From: Lysobacterales bacterium
Lineage (GTDB): Bacteria; Pseudomonadota; Gammaproteobacteria; Xanthomonadales; BPKI01
Direction: 5' to 3'
NCBI GenBank assembly: GCA_026005055.1
Contig: BPKI01000001.1
Span: 918,392 to 982,391 of the forward strand
Length of the DNA: 64,000 bases
Every line of letters starts with the position of its first letter. The first letter of the stretch is position 1. This document shows positions 1 through 19,131 of the stretch, piece by piece. Made by a program: the position numbers and the translations under genes. Under the pieces are notes generated by a model, which did no database searches, was not told the origin of the DNA, and worked only from the letters and a program-made list of their open reading frames with translations.

Positions 1-1
1 C

Positions 2-1279: not shown

Positions 1280-1285
1280 GCGAGG

Positions 1286-2503: not shown

Positions 2504-2511
2504 GGACGACC

Positions 2512-2934
2512 ATGAGAAATCCCTTGCCGATGCCGGCCCGCGTCGCCGGCATGACCCTGATCGAAATCCTCGCCGTGATCGTTCTGATCGGCATCGTCAT
2601 GGCGGTGGTGGCGCAGCAGGTCTTCCAGCGGGTGGAGACGGGCAAGTTCAACGCCGCCAAGGCGCAGCTCCAATCCCTCAGCATGAAGATCGAGGCCTAT
2701 GCCCTGGACAACGGCCGACCGCCGCAGCGGCTCGAGGACTTGGTGCAGCGGCCGGGGGATGCACGCAACTGGAACGGCCCTTATGCCCGCGAATCCGATC
2801 TGCGCGATCCCTGGGGCAACGCCTTCGTCTATCGGGTGCCCGGGGAACGCGGGCCCTTCGATCTCATCTCCCTTGGCGCCGATGGACGCCCCGGCGGAGA
2901 GGGCAATGCGCGCGACCTCGGCAACTGGGAGTAA
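2512..2934 (+). CDS. gspG: T2SS major pseudopilin GspG
   Basis: Prepilin site AG|MTLIEILAVIVLIG; NWNGPY, DPWGNAFVY, SLGADGRPGGEG; GAGGA RBS before ATG 2512. Confidence 0.96.
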   Translation: MRNPLPMPARVAGMTLIEILAVIVLIGIVMAVVAQQVFQRVETGKFNAAKAQLQSLSMKIEAYALDNGRPPQRLEDLVQRPGDARNWNGPYARESDLRDPWGNAFVYRVPGERGPFDLISLGADGRPGGEGNARDLGNWE

Positions 2935-3370
2935 CCGCGGTTTCACGCTCATCGAGCTGACCGCGGTCCTGATGCTGGTGGCCATCGGTTTCGCGGCCTT
3001 GAGTTATGGACTGACGGCGCAGCTCGAGAACCAGCGGGTGAAAGCGGCGGCGCGCGAGCTGGTCGCGGCGCTGCGTCAGACCCGCGCCCAGGCCATCCTG
3101 AAAGGTGAATCCCAAGCGCTCGAACTCGATCTGCGCGAGCGCAGCTACCGGGTGCCTGGCCGGGAACCGGTATCGCTGCCGGAGGGCATGGAGCTTCGAA
3201 TGCTCACCGCCCGCAGCGAGCAGATCGATCGGGAGCGCGGGCGCATCCGCTTTTACCGCGACGGCAGCTCGACCGGCGGCAACATCGGGCTGATCAAGGG
3301 CCAGCGCGAGTGGCGCATCGAGGTGGCATGGTTGACCGGCGAGGTCGTTCTGCGGGAGCGCGAGCGATGA
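2906..3370 (+). CDS. gspH: T2SS minor pseudopilin GspH
   Basis: RG|FTLIELTAVL N-methylation motif; IRFYRDGSSTGG; start overlaps gspG end. Confidence 0.9.
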   Translation: MRATSATGSNRGFTLIELTAVLMLVAIGFAALSYGLTAQLENQRVKAAARELVAALRQTRAQAILKGESQALELDLRERSYRVPGREPVSLPEGMELRMLTARSEQIDRERGRIRFYRDGSSTGGNIGLIKGQREWRIEVAWLTGEVVLRERER

Positions 3371-3753
3371 GCGCGCGCCGCGGATTCACCCTGATCGAGG
3401 TGGTGGCGGCGCTTTTCCTGCTCGCGCTCGGCTTCGGCCTATTGATGCAGCTCCTCGGCTCGGCGCTTGCCCAGACGAGACGTGCGGCGTTGCAGACGGA
3501 GATGGCGCTCGCCGCGCAAAGCCTGATCGATCGCTTGGGCATGGATTTTCCGCTGGAACCGGGCGAACGGAGCGGCGAGCTGGGCGGCGGGCTGCGCTAC
3601 CGTCTTTCGATCGAAGAGGATGCGGCGAGCTCCTCCTTGGCGGGAGGAGTACCGCATCCCTGGACCCTGCTGCGGGTACGGCTGAGGCTTTCGGCGGAAG
3701 CCGGGGCCGAAGCCGACTTCGAGACCCTCCGGGTGGGGGTGCGCCAGCCGTGA
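3367..3753 (+). CDS. gspI: T2SS minor pseudopilin GspI
   Basis: RG|FTLIEVVAAL; ATGA overlap with gspH; operon position. Confidence 0.88.
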   Translation: MSARRGFTLIEVVAALFLLALGFGLLMQLLGSALAQTRRAALQTEMALAAQSLIDRLGMDFPLEPGERSGELGGGLRYRLSIEEDAASSSLAGGVPHPWTLLRVRLRLSAEAGAEADFETLRVGVRQP

Positions 3754-4454
3754 TCAGGGCGCGGGGCTTCACCTTGGTCGAGCTCGTCGCGGCGCTCACG
3801 CTCTTCGCGCTGCTTACCGCCATCGCCTTCGGCATCATGGGCTCGGCCACCCGCGCCGCAGCCAGCGGGGAGCGCCTCGCCGATTCCGTGGAGCGGGTGC
3901 GGGTGGCCCAGGAGTTCTTGCGGCGTCAGATCGCGCTCGCCCTCCCGCTCGCCTTCGCGAGCGATCCTACGAGCGGAGCGCCGGTGATCTTCGAGGGGGA
4001 TTCGCGCGAGCTCCGCTTCGTCGCGCAGATGCCGGGTCATCTCGGCGAAGGCGGGCCGCGCCGGCAGCTGATCAGGCTCGAGCAGGACGGCCGCGAGATG
4101 GCGCTCGTCTTCCGCCATCTCCCTCTGCACCCGGCGGAGGAAGACAGCCGAATCGAAGACACCGAGCCGGTGGTGCTGCTCGCTGGCATTCGTGACGGTG
4201 GCTTCCGCTACCGCGGGCTCGATGGGGCCGCCGAGCCGGGCGAATGGCGCGATCGCTGGGAGGAGAGCGCACAGCCGCCGGTGTGGGTGGAGCTTCAGTT
4301 GGAGCTCGACCCGGAAGTGCATCGCACGATCTGGCCTCCGCTGCTGATCGCGCTTCAGATCGACGGCGTTCCGGGCGGAGCGTTCCTGTTCGGACCGGCG
4401 CCGGGCGGTGTGGATTTCGGGCCGCGTCCTCCGACTGGAGGTGGGGAACGATGA
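3750..4454 (+). CDS. gspJ: T2SS minor pseudopilin GspJ
   Basis: RG|FTLVELVAAL; GTGA overlap; operon position. Confidence 0.88.
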   Translation: MIRARGFTLVELVAALTLFALLTAIAFGIMGSATRAAASGERLADSVERVRVAQEFLRRQIALALPLAFASDPTSGAPVIFEGDSRELRFVAQMPGHLGEGGPRRQLIRLEQDGREMALVFRHLPLHPAEEDSRIEDTEPVVLLAGIRDGGFRYRGLDGAAEPGEWRDRWEESAQPPVWVELQLELDPEVHRTIWPPLLIALQIDGVPGGAFLFGPAPGGVDFGPRPPTGGGER

Positions 4455-5359
4455 GCGCATCCCCTCCTCTGGTGCGCCGCGGGATCGCGCTGGTTCTCGT
4501 CATCTGGGCCACGGCCTTGCTCACCGTGACGCTGGGCGGTTTCGTCCTGATCGCCCGTGCCGAAAGCTTGATTGCCCGTCACCACCTGGACGGCGTCAGG
4601 GCGCGGCTGGCTGCCGAAGCGGGGATCCATCACGCCGCGTACAAGCTCTCCGAGCTGGAACCGACGGCGCGCTGGATCGGGGATGGCCGGAGCTACCGTC
4701 TCCAGATCGGGGATGCCGAGGTCGAGGTCGCGCTCACCGACGAAAGCGGCAAGATCGATCTCAACGCCGCCGACGAGGCCGTTCTCAAGTCCCTGTTCGT
4801 TCAGACCGGCGGGCTGCCGGAGGAGGAGGCGGCCGCGCTTGCCGATGCGATTCTCGACTGGCGGGACGAGGATGATCTGGTGCGTGCCAATGGCGCCGAG
4901 CGCGAGGATTATCGCCGGGCGGGTTTCCCCTACGTGCCGAGCAATCGCGCCTTCGCGACGGTGGAGGAGCTGCTGCAGGTGATGGGGATGAGTTACCCCT
5001 TGTTCCAGCGTGTCGAGCCGGCCCTCACCGTGCATTCCGGAATGTCCCAGCCCAATCCCGCCTTCGCGCCGCTCGAGGCCTTGATGGTCTTTCCCGGAAT
5101 GACCGAGGCCCTCGCCTCGAGCTTGATCCAGCAGCGGCAGCAGGTACCGCCCGAGATGATGGGCCAGCCCATCGGCCAGCTGCCCGATGGAACCCCCGTG
5201 ATCTCGCAGTTCGGTGGGCTCGCGTATAGTATTCGGGTTCGCGCGGTTCTACCGACCGGCGCCTCCCGCGAGTTTCATTACACCATCCGGCTCGGCATGC
5301 AGGCTCGGGCCGGTCGTCCGTTTCACGTCCTTCGCTTCCGCGAAGGGGATCCGTCCTGA
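4451..5359 (+). CDS. gspK: T2SS minor pseudopilin GspK
   Basis: RG|IALVLVIW (no Glu5, typical of GspK), DESGKIDLN, DAILDWRDEDD, FATVEELLQVMGM. Confidence 0.93.
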   Translation: MSASPPLVRRGIALVLVIWATALLTVTLGGFVLIARAESLIARHHLDGVRARLAAEAGIHHAAYKLSELEPTARWIGDGRSYRLQIGDAEVEVALTDESGKIDLNAADEAVLKSLFVQTGGLPEEEAAALADAILDWRDEDDLVRANGAEREDYRRAGFPYVPSNRAFATVEELLQVMGMSYPLFQRVEPALTVHSGMSQPNPAFAPLEALMVFPGMTEALASSLIQQRQQVPPEMMGQPIGQLPDGTPVISQFGGLAYSIRVRAVLPTGASREFHYTIRLGMQARAGRPFHVLRFREGDPS

Positions 5360-5361
5360 GC

Positions 5362-6489
5362 ATGGCGATCGCCGCCGACACCGAACGCATCCTGGCGCGT
5401 CTGAAACTGCGCTACCAGCGTTCCTCCTTGCCGGCATTCTTTCGCTGGTGGGGGGGTGAGCTGAAAGCCCTCCTGCCGCGCGCCTGGCGGGAGGCGATCG
5501 CGCGGCGTCCTCGGGCGGTTTACGTGATCGGTGAGGGAAATCGGCTCCATCTCCGGCGTCCCGATGGCGAGGAGCTGACCGCGGTGGCGCTCGAGGATCC
5601 GCCTGCGGAGCGCAGGCTTCGCATCGTCGAGGCGCTCGCCGCCCTCGGCGAGGAGCGACCTCCCGTGATCCTCGCGGTTCCCGCCGATCGCGCGCTGCGT
5701 CGAAGGCTGAGGTTTCCCGAGGCGGTCGAGGAAAGCCTCGAGCAGGCGCTCGTCTACGAGATCGACCGGCAGACCCCCTTCCGCGCCGAGGAGGTCTATT
5801 TCGGTGTACGGCTCGTCGATCGAGACCGTGAAGCTCGCCAGGTCGAGGTCGAGCTGGTGGTGGTTCCGCGTGCGATCGCCGATCCGTGGCTGGCGGCGGC
5901 GCGCGAATCGGGTCTGCCGGTCTTCGGCTTGGATGCTTGCGACGAGGAAGGCAATCCCCTGGGGTTCAACCTGCTGCCGCGCGGCGAACGGGTGCGGCTG
6001 CCGGATCGTCGCCGCCGGCTCAACCTCATCCTCGCGGCGACGGCATCGGTCCTCGCATTGATCGCGATGCACCTTTGGCTCGCCAATCGCGAGCACGCGC
6101 TCTCACGGATGCGGGCGGAGGTCGAACGGCTGCGTGAGGAAGCGCGCACCGTCGCTGCGCTGCGCGAGGAACTCGAACGCGCGGTCGCCAGCGCGAGGTT
6201 CCTTTCCGAGCGGCGAAGCAAGCAGCCGCCGCTGATCCTCGTAATGGACGAACTCAGTCGGATCATTCCTGATGACACCTTCCTGGAGCAGCTCAACGTG
6301 AGCCAGGGACAGGCGGCCCTTCGCGGCCTCAGCCCCTCGGCGGCGAATCTCATCGGGCTCTTGCAGCAGTCGCGCTATCTCGCCGAGCCTTCGTTCCAGA
6401 GCGCCATCCAGCCCGACCCGCGCTACGGCAAGGAGCGCTTCGACCTCAAAGCGGTGCTCAAGGCGCATGTGGGAGAGCCTTCATCATGA
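5362..6489 (+). CDS. gspL: T2SS protein GspL/XpsL (PilN-like C-terminus)
   Basis: FFRWWGGEL, EIDRQTPF, FNLLP then one TM and coiled coil; operon position. Confidence 0.88.
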   Translation: MAIAADTERILARLKLRYQRSSLPAFFRWWGGELKALLPRAWREAIARRPRAVYVIGEGNRLHLRRPDGEELTAVALEDPPAERRLRIVEALAALGEERPPVILAVPADRALRRRLRFPEAVEESLEQALVYEIDRQTPFRAEEVYFGVRLVDRDREARQVEVELVVVPRAIADPWLAAARESGLPVFGLDACDEEGNPLGFNLLPRGERVRLPDRRRRLNLILAATASVLALIAMHLWLANREHALSRMRAEVERLREEARTVAALREELERAVASARFLSERRSKQPPLILVMDELSRIIPDDTFLEQLNVSQGQAALRGLSPSAANLIGLLQQSRYLAEPSFQSAIQPDPRYGKERFDLKAVLKAHVGEPSS

Positions 6490-7094
6490 GCCGAGATCGG
6501 CTTCTCGCCGTTGGGCTCCTGCTGGCGAGCGTGGCGCTCGCCTATTTCCTCGGCGTGCACTGGTGGTTCGTCGCCGGCCATCGGGCGATTGCCCGCGAGA
6601 TGGCCGATCTCGCCGAGCAGGCCGCTCGCTTTCAAGCGATCATCGCCCAGCGTCCCGAGATCGAGGCGCGGCTCGAGCGGGTTCGCGCTTTCGAGGCGAC
6701 GAATCCGGCCTTTTTGCAAGATCCCAACTTCGATCAGGCGAGCGCCACGCTCATCACGCGCTTGCGTCAGAGCGTCGAGATGCATGCCGGGCGCAGCCCG
6801 CAGGGCTGTCAGGTGCTGAGCAACCAGCCCCTTCGTTCGCGGGAGGCGGAGCCATTCCTCAGGGTCACGCTCAGTGTGCGCCTGCGCTGTGGCCTCGAGG
6901 CGCTGGTCGCGGTGCTCCATGATCTGGAGGGCGGGACGCCGATGCTGTTTGTGGATGAGTTGACTATCCTCAGTCGGCGTTTCGGGGTGCCTGGCGTGCG
7001 TCAAAACTTCCCAGGGGCGCCGCAGGACTACACCGACGTCAACTTCGCGCTTTACGGCTATCTGCGACAGGAGGGAGGCGCCAATGCCCGGTGA
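6486..7094 (+). CDS. gspM: T2SS protein GspM/XpsM
   Basis: N-terminal TM, coiled coil, LHDLEGGTPMLFVDEL, FALYGYL; operon position. Confidence 0.88.
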   Translation: MSRDRLLAVGLLLASVALAYFLGVHWWFVAGHRAIAREMADLAEQAARFQAIIAQRPEIEARLERVRAFEATNPAFLQDPNFDQASATLITRLRQSVEMHAGRSPQGCQVLSNQPLRSREAEPFLRVTLSVRLRCGLEALVAVLHDLEGGTPMLFVDELTILSRRFGVPGVRQNFPGAPQDYTDVNFALYGYLRQEGGANAR

Positions 7095-7764
7095 TCCGAG
7101 GCAGGTCCTGACCCTCGCCCTGGCCGGGTTGAGCCTTCTCTCGGCGATCGTGGTCGCCCTCGAACTCGCCGGCCTGGGCCGAGGGTATCGTCTGCCTGAT
7201 CCGGTCCCGCAGGCGTCACTGCCCGAGCTCACGGTGGAGGAGGGCCTCGCCCGGCTTCCGCCGCTCGAGACCTTCGCGGCGGCGATCGAGCGCCCGCTGT
7301 TCGAACCCGATCGCCGTCCGCCGCCCCCACTCGTGTCCGAAAATCCCGCGCCGGTGCCGGAGCCGAAGCCCGAGGCACCGCCGCTCGAGGTCAGAGTCAC
7401 GGGGATCGTGGTCACGCCAGAGCTGCGGCTGGTGATGGTCCGCCCTCCTGGCGCGCCGGACTCGGTGGTGCTGCGCGAGGGAATGCCGCTACCGGGCGAT
7501 TTCGCTGCTTGGAAAGTGGCGCGCGTCCTCCCGCGGCAGGTCGAGTTCGAGGGCGGCGGGCAGATGCGCAGTACCGTGACCTTGGAGGTCGACAAGTCGG
7601 TTCGTGAGGTTGCGCCGCTCACCGGCGAGATCCCGCAACCGGCCGCCTCGAATCCCGATCTCGAGGTCCAGCGCCGCGCTGAGGAGATCCGGCGTCGCAT
7701 CGAAGAGCGTCGTCGGCAGCTTCGCGAGGAGGCCGCCCGACTGGGAGGACCTGAAAAACAATGA
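7084..7764 (+). CDS. gspN: XpsN-type T2SS protein (GspC-like function)
   Basis: N-terminal TM, ERPLFEPDRRP motif, VTGIVVTP; between M and D as in xps operons. Confidence 0.8.
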   Translation: MPGDPRQVLTLALAGLSLLSAIVVALELAGLGRGYRLPDPVPQASLPELTVEEGLARLPPLETFAAAIERPLFEPDRRPPPPLVSENPAPVPEPKPEAPPLEVRVTGIVVTPELRLVMVRPPGAPDSVVLREGMPLPGDFAAWKVARVLPRQVEFEGGGQMRSTVTLEVDKSVREVAPLTGEIPQPAASNPDLEVQRRAEEIRRRIEERRRQLREEAARLGGPEKQ

Positions 7765-9932
7765 AAACACGACGTGCGACCCTTCCATCCGTATTCATGG
7801 CTGCCGCGTGCTCGCTTCTCGCGGCCGGCTGCGCGGTGCCGCGCCTGGCTGCGCCGGAGCCGCTTCAGAGCGGTCAGGCCGCGCAGAAAGCCTTCGAGGA
7901 ATACACCGAGCGTCCTCAGGGTGCGGGGGAGCCGGTACCCCGAGAAGAGCCGTTGATCGAACGTGGGACCGGCAAGTTCCTCGACGAGCGTGCGGCCTCA
8001 CGGCCCCTTCCGCCCCCGCCTCAGGACGGCGAGCTGGTGCTCAACTTCGAAAACGAATCCATCCAGGCGGTGGTCAAGGCGCTGCTTGGCGATCTCCTCC
8101 AGCAGAATTACGTGATCGCCCCCGGGGTGGGCGGAACGGTGACCTTTTCCACCGCGCGGCCCATCAAGATCGACCAGGCGATGCCCATCCTCGAGATGCT
8201 GCTCGCCTGGAACAACGCCACGCTGGTCTGGCAGGACGGGCGCTACGTGGTCCTGCCCATCGCGCAAGCCATCCCGGGCAATCTCTCGCCGCGGATTGGC
8301 CCCCCGGAGAACGCGAAAGGCTACGAGCTGCGGGCCGTTCCGTTGCGCTACATCTCGGCGAGCGAGATGGAGAAGCTGCTTCAGCCTTACATCCGTCCCG
8401 GTGCGATCGTGCGTACCGACAACCTGCGCAACATGATTGTGCTCGCCGGGACGGCGCGCGAGCTCACGACGTATCTCCGGACAATCGAGGTCTTCGACGT
8501 CGACTGGCTCGCCGGCATGTCGGTGGCGATCTTCCCCATCGAGTCGGTGGAGGTGAGCAAGCTCCTGCCCGAACTCGAGGCGGTGTTCGGCGAGGGTGCG
8601 AACACCCCGCTCGCCGGACTCTTCCGCTTCTTGCCCATCGAGCGGCTCAACGCGGTGCTGGTGATCACGACGCAGCCGAAGTATCTCGACGAGGCCGAGA
8701 AGTGGATCCGCCGCCTGGACCGGGGGGGCACCGCGAGCGGAGCGCGCCTTTACGTCTATGACGTCAAGAACGTCAAGGCCGCTGATCTCGCCGGGTACCT
8801 CAACGAGATCTTCGGTTCGGGCACGGGTGGGCGACGCGCATCCTCCGGGGGTGCGGTCGCGCCGGGGCTTCAGCCGGTCGAGATCCGCGCCATCAACGAT
8901 CCGCGCGGCCCTGCGTCGCAGCCGGAGGTCAAGTCGGCCGATGTTCCTCCGCCGCCCTCCGCTGGTGGCACGGGGATCGCCATCGGCGATACCGAGGACG
9001 TGCGCATCACGGCGATCGAAGAATCGAACTCGCTGCTCATTCGCGCCACGCCGACCCAGTACGAAGCGGTGCTCGCCGCCATCCGCAGGCTCGATCGGGT
9101 GCCGCTTCAGGTGCACATCGAAACGCGCATCATCGAGGTCGCCCTCAACGATCAACTCCGCTTTGGAGTGCAGTGGTTCTTCGAAAACGCGCGCAATCAG
9201 CAGGGCGCGCCGCGCGCGCGCGCCGGGACGCTGAGCCAGCAGGGGCTTTCCTGGAGCTTCGTCACCAGCGACTGGTCCTCGATCCTCGAGACCCTCGACT
9301 CGATCTCCGAGACCCGGGTGATCTCGGCCCCCTCGGTGGTGGTGCTCAACAATAAGAGCGCGAACATCAACGTGGGCCGTCAGATTCCGGTGGTGAGCAC
9401 CTTCATCGACCCGATCGGCGGCATCGGCGGTACCCCTGGGACCGGCTTCCAGCGCGGCCTCGTGCAATTCCGCGACACCGGCGTGATCCTCAACGTCACG
9501 CCCAGGGTCAACCCCGGAGGATTGGTGTTCATGGAGATCAAGCAGGAAGACTCCACGCCGGAGGAGTCGGTGGATGCCACCGGCAACGTACCGGTCAGCC
9601 GCCGCTCGATCGAGACCGAGGTGGCGGTGCAGAGCGGCCAGACTGTTTTGCTCGGCGGCCTCATCAAACAGACCGAAGGCCAGGCGCGGGCCGGTGCCCC
9701 GGGTCTAAGCCGCATCCCGGTGCTCGGCGGGCTCTTCGGTCGCCAGAACCGCACCGCCGATCGCCAGGAGCTCTTGGTAATGATCACCCCCACGGTGATC
9801 GGCTCGGTGGAGGATGCCGAGAACCTCACCGAGGAGTATCGCCGCCGCTTCGTCGGCTTGGAGCCGCTGCGCCCGCCGCGCCGAACCGATTCCGATGCTT
9901 CCACCAACGATCGAGGAGATCCCACCCCATGA
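7761..9932 (+). CDS. gspD: T2SS secretin GspD/XpsD (lipoprotein secretin)
   Basis: Lipobox LAAGC, LNFENESI, secretin domain (DTGVILNVTPRVN, LSRIPVLGGLFG, ELLVMITP). Confidence 0.96.
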   Translation: MKTRRATLPSVFMAAACSLLAAGCAVPRLAAPEPLQSGQAAQKAFEEYTERPQGAGEPVPREEPLIERGTGKFLDERAASRPLPPPPQDGELVLNFENESIQAVVKALLGDLLQQNYVIAPGVGGTVTFSTARPIKIDQAMPILEMLLAWNNATLVWQDGRYVVLPIAQAIPGNLSPRIGPPENAKGYELRAVPLRYISASEMEKLLQPYIRPGAIVRTDNLRNMIVLAGTARELTTYLRTIEVFDVDWLAGMSVAIFPIESVEVSKLLPELEAVFGEGANTPLAGLFRFLPIERLNAVLVITTQPKYLDEAEKWIRRLDRGGTASGARLYVYDVKNVKAADLAGYLNEIFGSGTGGRRASSGGAVAPGLQPVEIRAINDPRGPASQPEVKSADVPPPPSAGGTGIAIGDTEDVRITAIEESNSLLIRATPTQYEAVLAAIRRLDRVPLQVHIETRIIEVALNDQLRFGVQWFFENARNQQGAPRARAGTLSQQGLSWSFVTSDWSSILETLDSISETRVISAPSVVVLNNKSANINVGRQIPVVSTFIDPIGGIGGTPGTGFQRGLVQFRDTGVILNVTPRVNPGGLVFMEIKQEDSTPEESVDATGNVPVSRRSIETEVAVQSGQTVLLGGLIKQTEGQARAGAPGLSRIPVLGGLFGRQNRTADRQELLVMITPTVIGSVEDAENLTEEYRRRFVGLEPLRPPRRTDSDASTNDRGDPTP

Positions 9933-10339
9933 TGAGAACGCCTGTGCTTCTCGCCGCTGCTGTCCTGCTCGCCGCCTGCGCTCAGGGACTGCGCAAGCCC
10001 GATTCGCGCTCGCCCGAGGAGATCGTGGCCCAGCGCGCCAAGGAGCGCTGGGAACACCTCATGCAGGGCCGCCCGGAGCAGGCCTGGGAGTACATCGCCC
10101 CCGGATCGCGGGCGCTACTCGACCGGGCCTCCTATCTGGCCCAGAAGCGCAACGCGCCGGTGATGTACACCGGGGTCGAGCTCCTCGAGACGAGCTGCGA
10201 GGCCGAGGCCTGCACGGTGGAACTGAAGGTCCACACCCAAGCGCCGCTGCCATTCGCAGGGATGGTGCCTGGCTATTCGTTGCTGCGCGAGCGGTGGGTG
10301 CAGAGCGAGGGCATTTGGTATTTCGTTCCCAATCTGTGA
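9929..10339 (+). CDS. Uncharacterised lipoprotein (136 aa), last gene of the gsp operon
   Basis: Lipobox VLLAAC; ATGA overlap with gspD stop; two Cys (TSCEAEAC); ERW...GIWYF C-terminus. Confidence 0.8.
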   Translation: MMRTPVLLAAAVLLAACAQGLRKPDSRSPEEIVAQRAKERWEHLMQGRPEQAWEYIAPGSRALLDRASYLAQKRNAPVMYTGVELLETSCEAEACTVELKVHTQAPLPFAGMVPGYSLLRERWVQSEGIWYFVPNL

Positions 10340-10361
10340 GCGGCCATGCAGTGGCGGGGGA

Positions 10362-10390
10362 TTGCAAGCCTCGCGGGCGCGCCGTATCAT
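10362..10390 (+). promoter_or_regulatory. Sigma70-type promoter of the surface-protein gene
   Basis: TTGCAA (10362-10367), 17 bp spacer, TATCAT (10385-10390). Confidence 0.7.
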
Positions 10391-10478
10391 CCGAACACCG
10401 TCATGCTGGGAGCAGGGGGTTTCGCATCTGTATCCCGGTGGACGGAAGCCCTGTGATCGTTCCGTTAGGAGTGTTGCC

Positions 10479-11960
10479 ATGAGAAGAAACAAGCTGAGCA
10501 CGGCGATCTTCGCCGGCATCGCGGGCGGGGCGGGCATCGCCGCTACCGGCAACGCCGCGCTCTACCTCAATCCAGATGGCACCGGCCAGGTGCTCATCTA
10601 TCCCTACTACACGGTCAACAACAACCTTCAGACCCTGATCTCGGTCGTCAACACGACCGACCAGGGCAAGGCAGTCAAGGTCCGCTTCCTCGAGGGCCGG
10701 AACAGTAAGGAAGTCCTCGACTTCAACCTGTACCTCTCCGAGTTCGACGTGTGGACGGCAGCGATCATCTCGGCCTCGTCGGATACCTCCGGGCCCGGCC
10801 GGCTGATCACGGCCGACCGTTCGTGCACGGCGCCGGCCATCCCCTCAGGCGGCGTGGATTTCCGTAACTTCGTGTACGCGGCGACCTCGGCCGACTCGGG
10901 TCCGGGCGCGCTCTCCCGTACGCGCGAAGGCCACATCGAAATGATCGAGATGGGTGTGGTTCGCAATGCGGCTCCGTTTACGCCGCTCACCTGGATTACC
11001 CACGTGAGTGGTACGCCGGCGAATTGCCCCCAGATTCGTGCGGCGTGGTCTCCCGGCGGGCAGTGGACGGTGAATCCGTTGACGGCGATCGATCCGCCTA
11101 CGGGTGGGTTGTTCGGTGCCGCAGCGATCGTGGATGTGGCCAATGGCGTGATGTACACCTACAACGCCGAAGCGATCGATGCCTTCCGGGCTACGGCGAA
11201 CCACACGGATCCGGGCAGCGTGTTCCCCTCGCTGGCGGATAACGACACGGCTCCGACTGCCCGCGCGAGCATCACGTTCTATAACGGCGTGGCGGTCAAT
11301 GCGTCGTGGCCGGTTGGTCAAGCGATCGATGCCACCTCCTCGGTGTTCATGCATAGCGCTCTGGTCAACGAGTACGCGCTCGACACCGTGTTGCGGGCGG
11401 ATACCGAGTGGGTGGTGACCTTCCCGACCAAGCGCTTCTACGTCGACCAGGCGACGCTCGGTGCCGCGGCGCCCATTCAGCCGTTCACTCGCCGCTTCCC
11501 GGCTGCGGGTGTTTCCACCCCAGCCGCGGGCCGTGCTTGCGTGGACATCGGAATCCAGATCTACGACCGCGAAGAGGGGCGTCCTGGTCCCGGTGGCATC
11601 GACTTCTCGCCGCCGCCTCCCGGTGCGACGGGTCCGCAGCTTTGCTGGGAGGCTCAAGTGATCTCCTTCAATCAGGGTGATCGTGTCACCGCTGGTCAGC
11701 CCTCGAAGCTGCTCGGTTCGACGCTCTACACCAACATCGATGCCGCTGCGTTCGGCTTCCAGAACGGCTGGGTGTCGCTGGACTTCGACACGGTTCCGGC
11801 GCATCAACTGCGTCCCTCGGTCGAAGGCTTCGACTTCGTCGGTCTTCCGGCGACGGGCTTCTCGATCTCGCGTTACATCAACGCTGCTGCCGCTCCGGGT
11901 GTCCTCGCGAACTACTCGGGTCTGTGGAAGCATCGTGGCGAGCGGACGATCCTGCCCTGA
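10479..11960 (+). CDS. Secreted cell-surface protein, S-layer candidate (493 aa)
   Basis: AGGAG RBS 10467-10471; Sec signal MRRNKLSTAIFAGIAGGAGIAATGNA; LNPDGTGQVLIYPYYTV and AVKVRFLEGRNSKEVLDFNLYLS motifs I recognise from proteobacterial cell-surface proteins; Ala/Gly/Thr/Pro rich; own promoter and terminator. Confidence 0.8.
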   Translation: MRRNKLSTAIFAGIAGGAGIAATGNAALYLNPDGTGQVLIYPYYTVNNNLQTLISVVNTTDQGKAVKVRFLEGRNSKEVLDFNLYLSEFDVWTAAIISASSDTSGPGRLITADRSCTAPAIPSGGVDFRNFVYAATSADSGPGALSRTREGHIEMIEMGVVRNAAPFTPLTWITHVSGTPANCPQIRAAWSPGGQWTVNPLTAIDPPTGGLFGAAAIVDVANGVMYTYNAEAIDAFRATANHTDPGSVFPSLADNDTAPTARASITFYNGVAVNASWPVGQAIDATSSVFMHSALVNEYALDTVLRADTEWVVTFPTKRFYVDQATLGAAAPIQPFTRRFPAAGVSTPAAGRACVDIGIQIYDREEGRPGPGGIDFSPPPPGATGPQLCWEAQVISFNQGDRVTAGQPSKLLGSTLYTNIDAAAFGFQNGWVSLDFDTVPAHQLRPSVEGFDFVGLPATGFSISRYINAAAAPGVLANYSGLWKHRGERTILP

Positions 11961-11982
11961 TCGTTCGGTCATCCGGCCTTCG

Positions 11983-12013
11983 GAACCCCCGCTTCGGCGG
12001 GGGTTCTTTTTTT
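11983..12013 (+). terminator. Rho-independent terminator
   Basis: GAACCCCCGC-TTCG-GCGGGGGTTC perfect 10-bp stem followed by T7. Confidence 0.95.
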
Positions 12014-12469
12014 GTCTCACCGTCGGAGAATCTTCGGCGTAGCGACCGACCCGCCGCTAGGATCCGGCAAGAATGGCGGTGCTGCTTAGGATGGATTTCA
12101 GGTGAACGATCACGCCGTGCCCGCCGCGTTCCCCGGCCGGATGAATCGCCGCAAGGGCTCAGGCCGTGGGCAGGGTGCTCAGGAAGCGCGAGACCTTGAT
12201 ACCCAAGGACGACATGATTTCAGCAGCGGTGAGGACGTGCTCCGCGCTCGGGAGGGCCGGGTGACGAAGACGACCGTGGCTCACGTGCCACATGTCTTTT
12301 TGCCTCCAGTCGGAGCAATGACTCCGCAGATCGGAAGCGAGATTCCCTCTCAAGCCCGAACAACCTAGGGTGCGAGTGGCTTCTCCGGCGCGGCGAGGTG
12401 CATTATCCTTCCCCCGGTAACTATTCAATTTTCTCTCGTGTCGAGGTGGTGATCGTGGTGACGACTAAG

Positions 12470-13765
12470 ATGCGTTCCGTGAAGCTGGCCGCTTTGAGCA
12501 CGGCGCTGGTGCTCGCTGGCGGCAGCCAAGCGGTGGATTTGATCCTGAGCACGGCGAACGGACCTTGCACGTTGCCGCTCACCAGCGGAAGCAACGTCAC
12601 CATCGATCCGAACACCGGCAACGTTCTCGCGAGCGTCGCCACGGGGGCGAGCTGTCCCCAGCTCGCGGGCAATGCGCCGTTGACCGTCACCAAGACGGGC
12701 GCTGGTTCGGGCACGGTCGTGAGCTCGCCTCCGGGGATCAACTGCGGTGCGAGCTGTTCGGCGCAGTTTCCTTCGGGATCGACCGTGAGTCTCACGGCCA
12801 GTGCCGGATCCGGTTCGATCTTCGCCGGTTGGTCCGGGGATTGCACGGGCACTGGATCGTGCACGGTGACCATGACCGCAGCTCGCAACGTCACGGCGAC
12901 CTTCAACGTCGCACCGACCTATCAGCTCACCGTGAACAAGGCAGGCACCGGCAGCGGAACCGTGACGAGTAGTCCTTCGGGAATCAGCTGCGGCTCCACT
13001 TGTTCGGCCAACTTCAACCAGGGCTCCACCGTCACGTTGACCGCGACGCCCGATTCCGGCTCGACCTTCGCGGGATGGAGCGGAGGCGGATGCTCGGGTA
13101 CGGGCTCCTGTTCGGTGACGATGAGCACCAACCAGACGGTGACGGCGACGTTCAACACGGGAAGCAGCACCCCACCCGGTTGCGATGGCGTGAACGCGCC
13201 TGCAGTGATCGCCAATCGGATGACCAGTACGACCGTGTTCGTGAATTTTGTTCCGCCCGAGATGACCGTGGATGCGACGTCCTACGCCGACATCTTCCGC
13301 CAGGCGATGACGGCTGGGGGTGCCCCCCCCGTACCTTGGCCGGGTCAAACGACACCGAGGGCGGTGCGGATCGCGAAGACGGGCCATATCGCGGCGCAAT
13401 TCACCGTGCCCGCCGACACGACATACGTTCGTTGGGATCTGTCCTTCGAGGTTCAAGGCGATCCCGCCGGATCCGCCGTTCCTCAACTTTTGCCCTACGC
13501 GACCATCTCGCGTTGTCCTGGCAACTTCAACACCACCGGCCCGAATGCGGTCCACCCGAACTGCGTCTGGCCGGCAGCGCCGGGAAGTTGGAGCATGCAA
13601 GTCGTCGCGAATGCGAGCACTTACTCGGGTAGCCGCTGTCCGATCGAGAAGGGGCAGACCTATTACCTCAATTTGGCGCATTGGAGTCCGAGTGCGCCGA
13701 CCGAGGCCGGCTGCACGGGTACGACGCAGTGCAGCATCGCTGTCCGCTCGCTCGCCTATGAGTGA
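12470..13765 (+). CDS. Secreted Cys-rich protein with two divergent InlB B-repeat (Flg_new_2-like) domains
   Basis: Signal MRSVKLAALSTALVLAGGSQA; two LTVxKxGxGSGTVxSSPxGIxCGxxCSAxF...FAGWSGxCxGTGSCxVTM...VTATFN units; start could be GTG 12455/12458. Confidence 0.85.
   Translation: MRSVKLAALSTALVLAGGSQAVDLILSTANGPCTLPLTSGSNVTIDPNTGNVLASVATGASCPQLAGNAPLTVTKTGAGSGTVVSSPPGINCGASCSAQFPSGSTVSLTASAGSGSIFAGWSGDCTGTGSCTVTMTAARNVTATFNVAPTYQLTVNKAGTGSGTVTSSPSGISCGSTCSANFNQGSTVTLTATPDSGSTFAGWSGGGCSGTGSCSVTMSTNQTVTATFNTGSSTPPGCDGVNAPAVIANRMTSTTVFVNFVPPEMTVDATSYADIFRQAMTAGGAPPVPWPGQTTPRAVRIAKTGHIAAQFTVPADTTYVRWDLSFEVQGDPAGSAVPQLLPYATISRCPGNFNTTGPNAVHPNCVWPAAPGSWSMQVVANASTYSGSRCPIEKGQTYYLNLAHWSPSAPTEAGCTGTTQCSIAVRSLAYE
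12680..13156 (+). repeat. Tandem intragenic domain repeat (2 x about 76 aa)
   Basis: Unit 1 12680-12907, unit 2 12926-13156, four Cys each, clearly alignable. Confidence 0.9.
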
Positions 13766-13892: not shown

Positions 13893-14813
13893 GTGCTGGC
13901 ACAGTTCCCGTTTCTGCTCGGCCGTGCGCTGATGGCGGCGACGGTCGTGGTGTCTGGTGGAGGGCAGTCCGTTTCCCTCGAGGACGTGGACGCCCGTGTC
14001 GCCCGTATTCCTGCGCAGGACCGCGGCACCTTCATGGACAGCCCGCGGCGGATTGAGGAGCTTCTGCGTCAGCTGCTGACCCACAAGCAGCTGGCCGCTC
14101 GGGCGCGGGAAGCAGGCTTGGACCAGGGCGAGGACTTCGAGGCCGAGGTGCGGGTTGCGGTCAATGAAATCCTCGCCCGGCGGTATCTCGAGCATATCGA
14201 GCGCACGACGCCGCGGCCGGACTTCGAGAAGGCGGCACGTGAACGCTACCTGGCGGATGCCTCCCTCGGAACGATTCCCGAGAATCGCGAGGTGTCGCAC
14301 ATTCTGGTCTCGACGCAAGGCCGGTCGGAAGCGGAAGCGCTCGCCAAGGCGCGGCAGCTCCGTGCGCAGCTGCTCGCCGATCCCTCGCGCTTCGAGGCGC
14401 TCGCCGAGAGCGAGTCGGACGACCCCTCGGCCAAGCAGAATCGCGGTCGCCTCGGGCCTTTGCGGCCGGAGTTCGTCGAGGAGTTCAACGAGGCTGCTCG
14501 TCGGCTCGCCAAGGTGGGCGACATCAGCGAGCCGGTCCGGACGAGCTTCGGGTTTCATCTGATCCGCCTCGATCGTCTCGATCCGCCGCGCCGCCAAAGT
14601 TTCGAGGAGGCGCGTCCTGCGCTGGTGATGAGGCTCGAGCAGGAATGGTTGCAGAGCCTCCGCCGGCGGGTCTTGGACGAGGTCCAGGGGCAACCGATCG
14701 AGGCCGATCCCGACTTGGTGGCCTCTCTGCGCTGGCGTTACCTGCCGCCGGAGATCGCCAAACAACGGCAAGCCGAGTACGAAGCCTGGAAGAAGAGCTC
14801 GGCGACTCACTGA
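13893..14813 (+). CDS. Parvulin (PpiC-type) peptidyl-prolyl isomerase, PrsA/EpsD-like
   Basis: VSHILV, FEALAESESDDPS, GRLG, EFNEAA, GDISEPVRTSFGFHLIRL. Confidence 0.9.
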   Translation: MLAQFPFLLGRALMAATVVVSGGGQSVSLEDVDARVARIPAQDRGTFMDSPRRIEELLRQLLTHKQLAARAREAGLDQGEDFEAEVRVAVNEILARRYLEHIERTTPRPDFEKAARERYLADASLGTIPENREVSHILVSTQGRSEAEALAKARQLRAQLLADPSRFEALAESESDDPSAKQNRGRLGPLRPEFVEEFNEAARRLAKVGDISEPVRTSFGFHLIRLDRLDPPRRQSFEEARPALVMRLEQEWLQSLRRRVLDEVQGQPIEADPDLVASLRWRYLPPEIAKQRQAEYEAWKKSSATH

Positions 14814-15108
14814 TTTCCGTGGCACCGAGCGCCAAGCGTCAGCGGCAACGGGACGGAGGAACGGCGAACCGAAGCCGCGCGCGCCCCGCCCTGGCGCGAT
14901 GCAGCCGGGCATTGCAGGAGCCGCCTCGGCCTGCCTGAGCGATGCCGAGCCTGTTGCCCACGCTTCGGGCCGATGGTCGCACGCCTCGGCTATACGGGTC
15001 GAGGAATGGCGTGCGTCGCGAAGCCTGGAAGGAACTTTGAGCGCACGGCATCTCGGGCGACGGGGGAAAGGCGGGAGCGGTGCGGGCATGCGCTAGACTC
15101 GCGCGGCG

Positions 15109-15882
15109 ATGACGCCCCGCTGCGACCTCTTCCGCCATTTCGTCCGGCAGGAGCTCAAGCGCCGATACCTCGGGACCTTGGGCTCTGCGGCTTGGGCGCT
15201 CATTCATCCGCTCGTCCAGTTCGCGGTCTATGCGACCGTCTTCGCGGTGATCTTCGCTGCGCGGGTGCCCGAGCGGCCGGAGGTTCCTTTCGGCGCATGG
15301 CTTGCGATCGCGCTGTGGCCTTGGTTCGCCTTCTCCGAGGCGATCAGCCGGGCGGCTGCCATCGTTCCCGAACATGCCGCCCTGATCGGGAAAGTCGCCC
15401 TTCCGATCGAGCTGCTGCCACTAGCGGTGGTGGCGGCGAGTTTCTTCCTGCATGGCCTGGGTTACTCGGTCGTTCTCCTGGCGCTCGCGGTGATGGGCTA
15501 CCCATTGAGCCCGTGGGGTTTGCTTCTGGCGCCTGCGCTGTTGGCGGTGCTCTTTGCGCTCGCGCTCGGTGTCGCGCTCGCGGTCGCGGCGCTCTCGGTC
15601 TTTCTGCGAGACGTGGCGCAGATCACGGCGCAGCTTCTGATGCTCGCTTTCTTCCTGACGCCGATTTTTTACTCCCGGGAGATGCTGCCGGAGCCTTGGC
15701 GGCCGATGCTCGATCTCAATCCGCTGACCGCCGTGGTCGAGGGATTGCGTTACGCTTGGCTCGACACGCCCCCTCCGACCGCGCAGGGGATCGCTCTCGC
15801 GCTGGCCTACGCGGCGTCGTTCCTGTTCGGCGGTTGGTGGCTTTTCCGCCGTACCGCGGGTCACTTCCACGATTACCTGTGA
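15109..15882 (+). CDS. wzm: ABC-2 polysaccharide exporter permease Wzm
   Basis: RYLGTLGSAAWALIHPL, LIGKVALP, RDVAQI, FFLTPIFY, LNPLT; 6 TM. Confidence 0.93.
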   Translation: MTPRCDLFRHFVRQELKRRYLGTLGSAAWALIHPLVQFAVYATVFAVIFAARVPERPEVPFGAWLAIALWPWFAFSEAISRAAAIVPEHAALIGKVALPIELLPLAVVAASFFLHGLGYSVVLLALAVMGYPLSPWGLLLAPALLAVLFALALGVALAVAALSVFLRDVAQITAQLLMLAFFLTPIFYSREMLPEPWRPMLDLNPLTAVVEGLRYAWLDTPPPTAQGIALALAYAASFLFGGWWLFRRTAGHFHDYL

Positions 15883-17060
15883 GCGAGCCCCTTCTTCTCG
15901 AAGCCCGGGGTTTGTGTAAGCGCTACCCTAGAACCGGTACCGGCCGCGAGCGCCTGCTCTCGCTGTGGAGCTTGCTGCGCGGCCGTGAGCGCTCCGATGC
16001 GATCGAGGTGCTCAAGCCGCTCGATCTCTTCGTCCGTCGTGGCGAGTCGCTCGGCATCATCGGCGAGAACGGCGCAGGAAAGTCCACCCTCCTCAAGCTG
16101 GTGACCGGGGTGATACGACCTTCCGCTGGCGTGGTGAGAATTCACGGTCGGGTCGGCGCCCTGCTCGAACTCGGTGCCGGTTTCCATCCCGAGCTGTCGG
16201 GGCGTGAAAACGTGCGTGCGAGCGCTTTGTTGAGCGGGATGAGCGCGGCCGAAGTGGAGGCACGCATGGAGGAGATTCTCGCCTTCGCCGACATCGGTCG
16301 GGCGGTGGACGAACCGGTCAAGCATTATTCGACCGGCATGGTCGTCCGCCTCGGTTTTGCGGTGATCGTCGCGCTTCGGCCCGAGCTTCTGATCACCGAC
16401 GAAGTGCTCGCCGTTGGCGACGAATCGTTCCAGAAGAAGTGCATCGCCTGGCTCGAGGACTATCTTTCGGCCGGCGGCACGCTGTTGCTCGTGTCGCACA
16501 GCATGTACCACGTGCAGAAACTCTGCCGCCGCGCGCTGTGGCTGAAGGATGGGGCGGTCGCGGCCCAAGGCGACGTCTTCGAAGTGACCCAGGCCTACCT
16601 CGCGTACCATGAACGCAAGCAGGCCCGGAGTCGAGCCGAGACCGCACGCGGCTCCTCTGCGGAGGGGTATCGGATCATCTCCGCCGAGCTCAACGGGGAG
16701 ACGGCGCGCGACGGCCTGATCCTGCTTCAAGGTGCGGAGCTCGAGATCCGCGCCGAGGTGGACTCGCCCGACGATCGGCCGCCGGTGCTCGCGGTCGGAA
16801 TCGTGCGCCTGGATGGGACGCCGGTCTATGGGGTCAGCTCGGAAATGGACGGAGCCCGGCCGGAACGCATCGAAGCCCGCCGCTATCGCTTCCGCCTGCG
16901 CTTTCCGGAACTGCCTTTGCTGCCCGGGGGTTATGCCCTGCGGGTGCATCCGCTCGATCCCGAGGGGCTGAGGCTCTTCGACACGGCGGAGTGGGAGTTC
17001 TTCGTGCGAGGGGAGTCGCGCGAGTTCGGGATGGTGCGTCTGCCCCATCGCTGGGAATGA
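15879..17060 (+). CDS. wzt: Polysaccharide ABC exporter ATPase Wzt with C-terminal Wzt-C domain
   Basis: GENGAGKST, LLELGAGFHPELSGREN, YSTGMVVRLGF, DEVLAVGDESFQKKC, plus about 140-aa beta-rich C-terminal extension; GTGA overlap with wzm. Confidence 0.93.
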   Translation: MSEPLLLEARGLCKRYPRTGTGRERLLSLWSLLRGRERSDAIEVLKPLDLFVRRGESLGIIGENGAGKSTLLKLVTGVIRPSAGVVRIHGRVGALLELGAGFHPELSGRENVRASALLSGMSAAEVEARMEEILAFADIGRAVDEPVKHYSTGMVVRLGFAVIVALRPELLITDEVLAVGDESFQKKCIAWLEDYLSAGGTLLLVSHSMYHVQKLCRRALWLKDGAVAAQGDVFEVTQAYLAYHERKQARSRAETARGSSAEGYRIISAELNGETARDGLILLQGAELEIRAEVDSPDDRPPVLAVGIVRLDGTPVYGVSSEMDGARPERIEARRYRFRLRFPELPLLPGGYALRVHPLDPEGLRLFDTAEWEFFVRGESREFGMVRLPHRWE

Positions 17061-17881
17061 TGTTCACCGTCATCATTCCCGTCTTCGACGCCCCAGAGGC
17101 GCTTGCGCGCTGCCTCGATAGCCTCGATGTCAGGGGGCTTGAGCAGGCGAGCGTGCTCATCGTCGATGATGCTTCGCGCGACCCGAGGACGGGACGGCTG
17201 ATCGAAGCCTTCGTCGCGCGGGATCCCGCACGGCGCCGGAGCATCCGAAATCCGGAGAATCGCGGCTTCGTGCATTCGGTGAACCGCGGGTTCCGAGAGA
17301 GCGAGGGCGATGTGGTGCTGCTCAACTCGGACACGGTGGTGACCTCGGGTTGGCTTCAGGGTCTTCGCCGCTGCCTCGACAGCGATCCGCGCATCGCCAC
17401 CGCCACGCCATGGTCGAACAACGCCACGATTTGCTCTTTGCCGCGCTTCCTCGAGGCGAACCCGGAGCCCGAAGACCCCGAGCGCTGGGCGAAAGCGGTG
17501 CGCGCCAAGGGCGCGCCGATCTATCCCGCGATCCCGACGGCGGTGGGCTTCTGCATGGCGATTCGCCGGCAGGCGCTTCGCGAGCTCGGCGACTTCGACG
17601 AGGCCACGTTCGGCCGCGGCTACGGCGAGGAAAACGACTTTTGCATGCGCGCCGCCGCCTTCGGTTGGCGCCACGTGCTCTGCGATGACGTCTATGTCGT
17701 GCACCAGGGAGGTGCCTCGTTTTCCCTCACCGGTGAGAAGCCAGGCGGACAGGCACTCGCCCGCCTTTCCGCCCGCTATCCGCACTACGAGCGGATGATT
17801 GCCGAATTCATCGCGGCCGACCCGCTCAGACCGCTTCGCGAGGCGGCGATCCTCGCCTTCGAACGCCTCGAGGATGCCTGA
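17057..17881 (+). CDS. Glycosyltransferase family 2
   Basis: VIIPVF, IVDDAS, NRGFVHSVNRG, LLNSDT, GYGEENDFCMR. Confidence 0.93.
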   Translation: MMFTVIIPVFDAPEALARCLDSLDVRGLEQASVLIVDDASRDPRTGRLIEAFVARDPARRRSIRNPENRGFVHSVNRGFRESEGDVVLLNSDTVVTSGWLQGLRRCLDSDPRIATATPWSNNATICSLPRFLEANPEPEDPERWAKAVRAKGAPIYPAIPTAVGFCMAIRRQALRELGDFDEATFGRGYGEENDFCMRAAAFGWRHVLCDDVYVVHQGGASFSLTGEKPGGQALARLSARYPHYERMIAEFIAADPLRPLREAAILAFERLEDA

Positions 17882-18285
17882 GCGCGGTCATCCCGAGGCT
17901 CGGCATCCCCCTTGGCATCAAGACGGCGATCGGAAGCTCGAGAGCGCCTCGCACCCCTGGGGGTCATCCGCATCGGCCCTCTCGTATCATCGATGCCTCG
18001 GCAAGCCGCTTGTGGCGAGGCAAGCCGGGAAAGGGCCAGGCGCTCGCAAGGGCGCACCGGAGCGGAGCGTGGACCTCGGTGGTACGGTTCGAGGCAGACG
18101 GCCTCGGCGCGAAGCGTGCTCGACCCGGTCGTGCCTTGTCGTGCCTCCACCGGCGCTTCGTGCCGGATCGCGAGGCCGCTGGATGAAGGAGCCCTTGCGC
18201 GAGAGAGCGCGCCGAATTGGCGCACACCCCGCATTCGTCCCCGCTTCGCGCTTAGACTGGGTGTCCCCTTGACCAGCCCATCCCG

Positions 18286-19131
18286 ATGAGCGAGCTTCCG
18301 ACGCTACCTTTCACCGGTGAGCGCTTCACGCCGGAGTGCGTGCGCGAGATTTGGTACGAGCACTGGCACCGCTACGCCTTTGCCAGTGTGTTCGCGCGCG
18401 GCAAGCGGGTGCTCGATGCCGCCTGCGGCGAGGGCTACGGCGCGGCGCTGCTCGCGCGTCAGGCCGCCAGTGTGGTGGGGGTGGATCTCTGCGCGGACAC
18501 CATCGCCCATGCCCGGCGGCGTTATCAGGGCTTCCCGAACCTCTGCTTTCTGCGCGCGGATGTCACCGATCTGCCCGAGGGCCTCGGCCGATTCGACCTC
18601 ATCGTGTCCTTCGAGACGCTCGAGCACGTGGCCGAGCAGGAGCGGATGCTCGCCGGCCTCGCGCGGCTGCTCGCCGAGGATGGCTTAGTGCTGATCTCCT
18701 CGCCGGAGCGGCGGGTCTATAGCGAGAAAAGCGGCTATCGCAATCCCTTCCACCATCGCGAGCTCACCCGCGAGGAGCTCGAGGCGCTGCTTCGCCGGTA
18801 TTTCCCCGCCTTCCGGCTTTATGGGCAGAAACTGTTGTTCCAATCGGCGCTGTGGCGGCTCGATGGGCAGGAGCGCGAGTACCTGATGCAGACCATGGAG
18901 GAGAATGGGGAGCTCGTGCCGGAGCCGCGCTACGAGGCGGTTTATTACCTGGCCGTCTGCGCCCGCCATCCCGCGGCCTTGCCGCAGCTTCCGGGACTCG
19001 CGCTGTTCGGCGATCGGGCCGAGTCGGTGTATCGGCACTACAACGAGGAGGTCGGCAAACACATTCGGGCGGGGCTTCGCATCCAGGAGCTCGAGCGCGA
19101 GCTTGCGGCGCTCAAAGGCGGTGGGCGATGA
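18286..19131 (+). CDS. Class I SAM-dependent methyltransferase (glycan-locus type)
   Basis: FTGERF, EHWHRY, VLDAACGEGYG, FDLIVSFETLEH, NPFH; short C-terminal coiled coil. Confidence 0.92.
   Translation: MSELPTLPFTGERFTPECVREIWYEHWHRYAFASVFARGKRVLDAACGEGYGAALLARQAASVVGVDLCADTIAHARRRYQGFPNLCFLRADVTDLPEGLGRFDLIVSFETLEHVAEQERMLAGLARLLAEDGLVLISSPERRVYSEKSGYRNPFHHRELTREELEALLRRYFPAFRLYGQKLLFQSALWRLDGQEREYLMQTMEENGELVPEPRYEAVYYLAVCARHPAALPQLPGLALFGDRAESVYRHYNEEVGKHIRAGLRIQELERELAALKGGGR

Follow-up and report, generated by a model that had tools for sequence, protein, structure and literature searches.

A putative NpdA-family surface-layer protein gene behind a type II secretion operon in a Lysobacterales bacterium, with a conserved box in its mRNA leader

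NpdA has been described as the surface-layer (S-layer) protein of Delftia sp. Cs1-4 and Paracidovorax citrulli by knockout, immunolabelling and cryo-electron microscopy (cryo-EM) (PMC3110197; PMC10765051). According to these reports, the layer is lost in the knockout, immunolabelling marks the envelope, the protein appears on gels as an oligomer of more than 150 kDa resistant to sodium dodecyl sulfate, and the D. acidovorans protein requires lipopolysaccharide (LPS) to assemble (PMC3110197; PMC10765051). The NpdA-coated tubes named nanopods are described as S-layer sheaths around vesicles (PMC3110197). Here we analyze a gene, below called npdA-like, in a stretch of 64,000 nucleotides (nt) from a Lysobacterales bacterium (assembly GCA_026005055.1, contig BPKI01000001.1, positions 918,392 to 982,391 of the forward strand; the whole stretch is referred to as the window, and positions are counted from its first letter). 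This gene very probably encodes an S-layer protein of the NpdA family. The preliminary description of the locus, made from the letters alone, had proposed an S-layer subunit of an unnamed family; the S-layer part is supported by full-length homology to the NpdA family and by gene context, while the family did have a name, being called NpdA in 2011 and surveyed in 2023.

In P. citrulli, NpdA has a signal peptide of 25 amino acids (aa), a mature mass of 52.4 kDa and no conserved domains, its gene is directly behind an upstream cluster of 12 gsp genes, and the genome carries two gsp clusters (PMC10765051). The protein studied here has the same profile, with a signal peptide of about 27 aa, a mature mass of 49.5 kDa (isoelectric point 5.0) and zero matches in both Pfam and NCBIfam. 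With NpdA of Delftia sp. Cs1-4 (DelCs14_5206) and P. citrulli AAC00-1 (WP_011797163) it has in common a Sec signal peptide of about 25 aa, a mass of about 50 kDa, the absence of a database domain, a type II secretion system (T2SS) cluster of about 12 genes directly upstream, the genera in which relatives occur, and tight self-association (here as a prediction), although NpdA of Delftia is larger, at about 61 kDa.

Table 3 of the survey lists Dokdonella, Rudaea, Chiayiivirga, Tahibacter, Wenzhouxiangella and Nitrosococcus among npdA-bearing genera (Gajbhiye et al. 2023, PMC10765051), and we observe a good agreement with it. The best 80 genomic loci, many of which are cut by contig ends, belong to Dokdonella, Rudaea, Chiayiivirga, Tahibacter, Wenzhouxiangella and relatives; they are Lysobacterales together with metagenome-assembled genomes labelled Halomonas, Oceanospirillales, Thioalkalivibrio, Marinicellaceae and Wenzhouxiangella. 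Nitrosococcus halophilus has a relative, Nhal_3646, that shares 48% identity with the query and covers 100% of it. Comamonas odontotermitis, a species present in Table 2 of the same survey (PMC10765051), carries a homologous locus on a replicon of 373 kb. The “cell surface protein” encoded there (510 aa) aligns with residues 1–486 of the window protein (BLASTP, 29% identity, E 1e-41), and profile comparison by hhalign covers 451 aligned columns at probability 100 and E 4.6e-41, so homology to a Comamonadaceae NpdA orthologue spans the full length. The gene order there, gspE-F-G-H-I-J-K-L-M-hyp-gspD-hyp-npdA-PPIase-ABC-methyltransferase (hyp, hypothetical gene; PPIase, peptidyl-prolyl isomerase; ABC, ATP-binding cassette), is identical to that in the window, and the same order is kept across the best 80 loci. 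By sequence and gene context the protein belongs to the NpdA family.

The family is large: 5168 relatives were found at E ≤ 1e-3 among 8000 scored candidates, and its 3414 clusters at 50% identity place it among the larger families that have no Pfam or NCBIfam model. Searches of Pfam, NCBIfam and PDB sequences with the npdA-like protein produced no matches, no Pfam domain occurs among the 120 relatives listed, and the clusters obtained from the ESM Atlas were all either unnamed or labelled “cell surface protein”. Databases label members “hypothetical” or “cell surface protein”, although two papers show the function. Conservation runs from end to end, signal peptide included, and the family motifs include NPDGxGQVLxYPYYT, SxxDVWT, DxSCTxP, RTxEGxxExIxM, PxGGLxG, WVxxFPTK, DREE, FSP and HR. 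Some relatives (P0122–P0128, P0132, P0141 and others) are about 930–975 aa long and have two matched stretches, constituting tandem NpdA units, and one reaches 1647 aa. A distant 589-aa member, P0240, was considered as betaproteobacterial and rejected, its named relatives being Elongatibacter and Lysobacterales. The composition of the mature protein (A 12.7, G 9.2, T 8.4, P 7.7, N 4.9%) differs from that of eight pooled neighbour proteins (R 10.6, E 8.6, L 12.1, T 3.8, N 2.2%), as the preliminary description had noted; its statements on four cysteines (residues 116, 183, 354 and 389) and on the lack of a terminal aromatic residue are equally correct, the sequence ending in ...RTILP.

The AlphaFold2 model is confident (predicted local distance difference test, pLDDT, 83.9; predicted template modelling score, pTM, 0.85), with pLDDT below 50 for residues 1–34, and the C-terminal half folded alone reaches pLDDT 86.1. 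Foldseek finds nothing in PDB at E ≤ 0.001 with either the whole model or the C-terminal half. In structural alignment both halves have the same best match, TM1070 of Thermotoga maritima (PDB 1nc7), a small beta-sandwich from structural genomics, which is a single domain of 116 residues with an entry title giving no function. Residues 32–235 match it with Z 8.3 and a root-mean-square deviation of 2.8 Å over 108 of 116 residues (identity 14%, next match at Z 5.2), and residues 286–490, with Z 7.3 and 2.9 Å over 110 of 116 residues (identity 4%, next match at 3.6). The model suggests two sandwiches of a single type, each with long inserted loops, where Z near 8 may reflect a common arrangement only. 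The profiles of the two halves have no shared sequence signal (hhalign probability 0.1), so an internal duplication would rest on the shared fold match to TM1070 alone. The model also bears on a reading of the protein as a porin or other integral beta-barrel of the outer membrane, which its secretion, beta-rich structure and abundant-looking envelope character might suggest; as the confident model comprises two sandwiches and no barrel, the last residue is proline and not an aromatic, and no porin family is matched in Pfam or NCBIfam, we consider this reading extremely improbable.

A homodimer is predicted strongly, with interface score ipSAE 0.88, 0.89 and 0.88 in three runs, compared to 0.00 for the best of three controls; of 30 proteins solved as one-chain pairs 20 attain this mark, and of 23 solved as single chains, 1. 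At least 94% of contacts are common to the runs, with partner pLDDT of at least 91, and the predicted dimer is symmetric, with about 200 contacts. Since no relative has a solved structure, the prediction does not reproduce a known one. The interface (residues 28–35, 87–93, 210–235, 265–274, 292–298, 360–368 and 476–489) is made by the most conserved motifs of the family, the mature N-terminus and the C-terminal strands among them, and a dimer of this kind would account for such strong conservation in an S-layer protein. It also fits the detergent-resistant oligomers of NpdA, the figures being model confidence and not a measurement. The same interface could be read as strand exchange in a fibre or a pilus-like adhesin that polymerizes without forming a two-dimensional lattice: residues 28–35, at the mature N-terminus, are modelled as packing on the C-terminal strands 476–489 of the other copy in the dimer, weak fold matches include Gram-positive pilins, FimA and Ena fibres, and NpdA-coated tubes are known. 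Still, the likeness to pilins does not rise above noise (Z ≤ 3.3, Foldseek E ≥ 0.1), the interface is predicted to be that of a closed symmetric dimer rather than a head-to-tail one, and nanopods as described are S-layer sheaths around vesicles (PMC3110197), which makes a fibre subunit very unlikely compared to an S-layer protein.

The gene context agrees well with the NpdA systems. The genes gspE to gspM, an XpsN-like gene, gspD and a lipoprotein gene all lie upstream on the same strand, comprising a T2SS cluster of about 12 genes (Table 1). A second T2SS is present elsewhere in the genome, represented by a gspD-gspE pair over the NCBIfam cut-offs (C1:566211-569491), so the T2SS linked to the npdA-like gene can be a dedicated exporter, and we infer that it exports the protein; a third secretin (C1:1090002-1091366), below the GspD cut-off, is probably PilQ. 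The lipoprotein between gspD and the npdA-like gene matches neither Pfam nor NCBIfam, has a homologue at the same position in Comamonas (E 1e-16), and could be a secretin pilotin or an S-layer assembly factor. Behind the gene, the isomerase, which also has a homologue at the same position in Comamonas (E 5e-24), together with the Wzm/Wzt-type exporter, the family 2 glycosyltransferase (GT2) and the methyltransferase, suggests a dedicated foldase and a glycan anchor, the glycan genes presumably serving to hold the layer. The main text of PMC10765051 has no mention of isomerase, LPS or glycosyl genes, though its Figure S5 may show them.

As type II systems mostly export enzymes, we considered that the protein may be an abundant soluble cargo of the linked system, such as a lectin-like binding protein or a hydrolase, released to the medium instead of being assembled on the cell. 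The two halves have beta-sandwich folds that weakly resemble galectins, carbohydrate-binding modules, glucanases and eqolisin peptidases, and the family has invariant Glu, His, Arg and Lys residues. These fold matches are weak, however (Foldseek E ≥ 0.013 and, apart from TM1070, Z ≤ 5.2), the conserved motifs are in the predicted dimer interface and not in an evident pocket, members of the family have been shown to be the S-layer protein by knockout (PMC3110197; PMC10765051), and an exporter of the O-polysaccharide type is linked in 65 of the 80 loci, fitting a surface anchor. A soluble cargo is hence an unlikely explanation, and the S-layer reading is retained.

Similar arrangements are known for other S-layers. 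The A-layer gene of Aeromonas (VapA/AhsA) is described as being located by a dedicated T2SS and an ABC-transporter-dependent O-polysaccharide cluster, with the O-antigen as the tether (PMC10765051; PMC4483657; PMC4413209). The likeness to VapA is one of description and not of sequence or fold, VapA constituting, as far as known, a different family. In Caulobacter crescentus the RsaA layer is held on O-antigen. RsaA resembles the present case in that the gene of an abundant S-layer protein is clustered with its secretion system (PMC10765051). It differs in type I export with a C-terminal signal and no N-terminal peptide, whereas the window protein has a Sec peptide and a T2SS. The RsaA-like class with RTX repeats was itself considered for this protein and rejected, as a signal peptide is present, no repeat family is matched, and the neighbouring system is a T2SS.

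The preliminary description had also claimed very high expression, partly from a shift to GGT, CGT and GCT codons. We called genes with a home-made codon model on the 2.44-Mb genome (1828 open reading frames, ORFs, covering 86% of the genome), and computed codon ranks over 1730 called ORFs of at least 100 aa, some top rows of the index of T-ending codons looking like mis-called frames. The shift is real: GGT constitutes 0.38 of glycine codons compared to 0.14 genome-wide, CGT 0.40 of arginine codons compared to 0.10, and GCT 0.19 of alanine codons compared to 0.08. By the index of T-ending Gly, Arg and Ala codons the npdA-like gene is 6th out of 1730, with two tuf copies 1st and 2nd and a type IV pilin 8th. 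The tuf copies (C1:2237150-2238340 and C1:2253686-2254876) are identical in the first 45 residues and equal in codon index, and have the strongest T-ending bias in the genome, while genes of ribosomal proteins barely depart from the genome average. As the bias is strongest in tuf and near average in ribosomal genes, the standard codon adaptation index (CAI) is a weak proxy of expression here.

The npdA-like gene is present in microbial-mat metatranscriptomes. In one mat RNA sample, contigs over the gene are about 99.5% identical to it (2–4 differences) at a word depth of 49–119, and those over the T2SS and downstream genes have no differences at a depth of 2.7–22. Three of the four RNA runs compared are one sample (X1 = X3 = X4), and runs X6–X8 contain a small share of the words or next to none. 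In a pair of runs from one sample, the contigs over the gene start at 10413 and 10415, just past the predicted transcription start, and end at 11977 and 11978, just ahead of the terminator stem, in run X1 both ends abutting sequencing-adapter letters; as contigs cannot show a start, these positions are a weak hint of it. None of the RNA pieces listed spans 10340–10412 or 11979–12400, and such gaps prove no transcript boundary.

Several observations weigh against the protein being an S-layer subunit or an abundant one. By CAI, computed with 34 ribosomal and elongation-factor genes as the reference, the gene is average (0.689, rank 686 of 1730, genome median 0.672), the outcome named in the preliminary description as speaking against high expression; codon selection is weak throughout the genome, however, with GGT at 0.22 in ribosomal genes against 0.14 genome-wide, so an average CAI is uninformative rather than negative. 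Contig depth ranks genes poorly, because it includes contributions from other strains (among the contigs over the gene, one has 22 differences in 320 places), and the depth contrast is a hint only. The evidence on very high expression is mixed, with an average CAI on one side and the T-ending index and the deeper mat RNA contigs on the other, and high expression is supported only indirectly. The structure searches matched no known S-layer fold. The invariant residues R147, E150, E154, H175, K318, R364, E365, E366, H485 and R489 would suit an enzyme or a metal site as well. The link to the experimentally studied proteins, WP_011797163 and DelCs14_5206, runs via the Comamonas orthologue, with its low identity of 29%, and via lists of genera. 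Out of 16 additional npdA-bearing cultures imaged by cryo-EM, one had no clear NpdA-like layer, and the gammaproteobacterial S-layers are only “hypothesised” in that survey to be NpdA (PMC10765051). Experiments in the lineage of the window consist, as far as that survey tells, of cryo-EM images of three gammaproteobacterial cultures, one being Rudaea cellulosilytica, which belongs to the set of 16 (PMC10765051). An S-layer role in this particular organism would follow from homology and context, and the organism would form a layer by the same reasoning; likewise, its surface, export route, anchor and the role of the foldase are given below as expectations.

The proposed pathway would be as follows. 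The 493-aa precursor would cross the inner membrane via Sec and lose a signal peptide of about 26 residues, then fold in the periplasm into two beta-sandwich domains, perhaps aided by the conserved parvulin-type isomerase, and pair into a tight two-fold dimer. The Xps-type T2SS encoded upstream would move the folded protein over the outer membrane, and on the cell surface it would form a para-crystalline coat held on lipopolysaccharide, probably on polysaccharide made and exported via the downstream Wzm/Wzt genes.

The transcription unit has several conserved features (Table 1). The listed ORF starts at TTG 10362 and encodes 532 aa, which we consider an over-extension, and the downstream ATG was taken as the start. 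The preliminary description had pointed to a near-consensus promoter, an AGGAG ribosome-binding site and a single textbook terminator in the window, and we found all three. The promoter is the only sigma-70-like match in the window, where shuffles predict about 3.3, so a lone match is no more than expected by chance and means little by itself. A match to TTGnnn-N16-18-TAnnnT located 60–130 nt upstream of the ATG is, however, observed in 73 of 78 orthologous upstream regions compared to 105 of 1560 shuffles, so that the place of the promoter, not the match itself, carries weight. Similarly, the window contains 30 terminator-like sites at about 32 predicted by shuffles, and among these thirty that of the npdA-like gene is the sole one with a long G+C stem and an unbroken T run directly after it; a hairpin with a T run within 150 nt past the stop is present in 69 of 77 orthologous loci. 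The own promoter, conserved leader and strong terminator fit a product required in amounts far above those of the surrounding machinery. The gene had been called stand-alone, and this is true of its promoter and terminator, but not of its place, as it lies inside a conserved block, with the T2SS operon ahead and the foldase and glycan-export module behind.

The leader contains an invariant 8-mer, AGCCCTGT, at 10447–10454, found 27–36 nt upstream of the ATG in 76 of 78 orthologous upstream regions; TAGGAG is found 12–15 nt upstream of the ATG in 77 of 78. The box is kept although the proteins share only 40–50% identity and the remaining leader varies. It is absent from the Comamonas odontotermitis locus. 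The genome has 26 copies of the 8-mer, and this one is the only copy ahead of a Shine-Dalgarno sequence (SD), so the box was rejected as the mark of a regulon. In minimum-free-energy folds, the partner of the AGCCCUGU box is the SD region in 30 of 76 leaders and upstream sequence in 9, and in the leader from the window the box is mostly unpaired. As the folds disagree, they single out no one structure and do not discriminate between an anti-SD element and a binding site, either of which the box could be, and as both the box and its SD partner are invariant, covariation gives no test of the pairing.

That the NpdA family forms S-layers is known; what is worth following here is the box in the leader, the conserved set of accessory genes and the model of a dimer with two domains per copy. 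Taking these together, we tentatively propose, as a possible rather than a probable scheme, that gammaproteobacterial npdA genes may be controlled post-transcriptionally via the invariant AGCCCUGU box, acting as an anti-Shine-Dalgarno switch or as a protein or small-RNA site that ties synthesis to export or envelope growth; that the lipoprotein, the parvulin foldase and the Wzm/Wzt glycan module may be obligatory parts of an undescribed S-layer assembly pathway; and that the protein may be an intertwined dimer of two TM1070-like sandwiches. Recognition of the family leads to the prediction of a surface layer for this small-genome mat organism from the Lysobacterales and for hundreds of uncultured relatives. 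S-layers are relevant to phage resistance, vesicle formation and cell-cell contact, and the leader box, the block of lipoprotein, foldase and glycan-export genes, the two-domain model and the dimer provide testable handles on the regulation, folding, export and anchoring of S-layers in diderm bacteria.

Table 1. Positions of the npdA-like transcription unit and of the neighbouring genes in the window; fractions in the last column are numbers of the best 80 loci with the gene, unless stated otherwise.
Feature	Position	Strand	Remarks
npdA-like gene	10479..11960	+	493-aa precursor; ATG 10479, stop TGA 11958-11960
Sigma-70-like promoter TTGCAA-17-TATCAT	10362..10390	+	9/12 consensus positions matched
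Putative 5' leader, about 82 nt	10397..10478	+	transcription start inferred near 10397
AGGAG ribosome-binding site	10467-10471	+	7 nt 5' of ATG 10479; Shine-Dalgarno TAGGAGT 10466-10472
Sec-type signal peptide, about 26-27 residues	10479..10559	+	MRRNK, hydrophobic core, GNA/A; read from sequence, kept across family; cleavage site putative
Intrinsic terminator	11982..12014	+	stem 11982-12007 with 11 pairs (8 G-C) and 4-nt TTCG loop, then TTTTTTT
Xps-type type II secretion operon	1..9932	+	Pfam/NCBIfam matches; collinear in orthologous loci and Comamonas
gspE	to 1279	+	cut by window edge
gspF	1286-2503	+	
gspG	2512-2934	+	
gspH	about 2930-3370	+	
gspI	3310-3753	+	
gspJ	3750-4454	+	
gspK	within 4244-5359	+	
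gspL	5362-6489	+	
gspM	6486-7094	+	
XpsN-like	7084-7764	+	
gspD	7761-9932	+	74/80
136-aa lipoprotein between gspD and npdA	9929..10339	+	lipobox LLAAC; 77/80
Secreted protein with two Flg_new_2 (InlB B-repeat) domains	12470..13765	+	between npdA and isomerase
PpiC-type peptidyl-prolyl isomerase (parvulin, PrsA/SurA-like)	13893..14813	+	67/80
Glycan export/synthesis genes	15109..19131	+	four genes, Wzm/Wzt-type exporter included
ABC-2 permease (Wzm-like)	15109-15882	+	
ABC ATPase with Wzt C-terminal domain	within 14973-17060	+	65/80
GT2 glycosyltransferase	16991-17881	+	47/80
S-adenosylmethionine (SAM) methyltransferase	18286-19131	+	60/80

The secreted Flg_new_2 protein encoded directly behind the npdA-like gene has a relative in only 14 of the 80 loci, and is therefore a variable passenger of the block. 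One RNA contig (2086 nt, no differences) spans its gene and the start of the isomerase gene.

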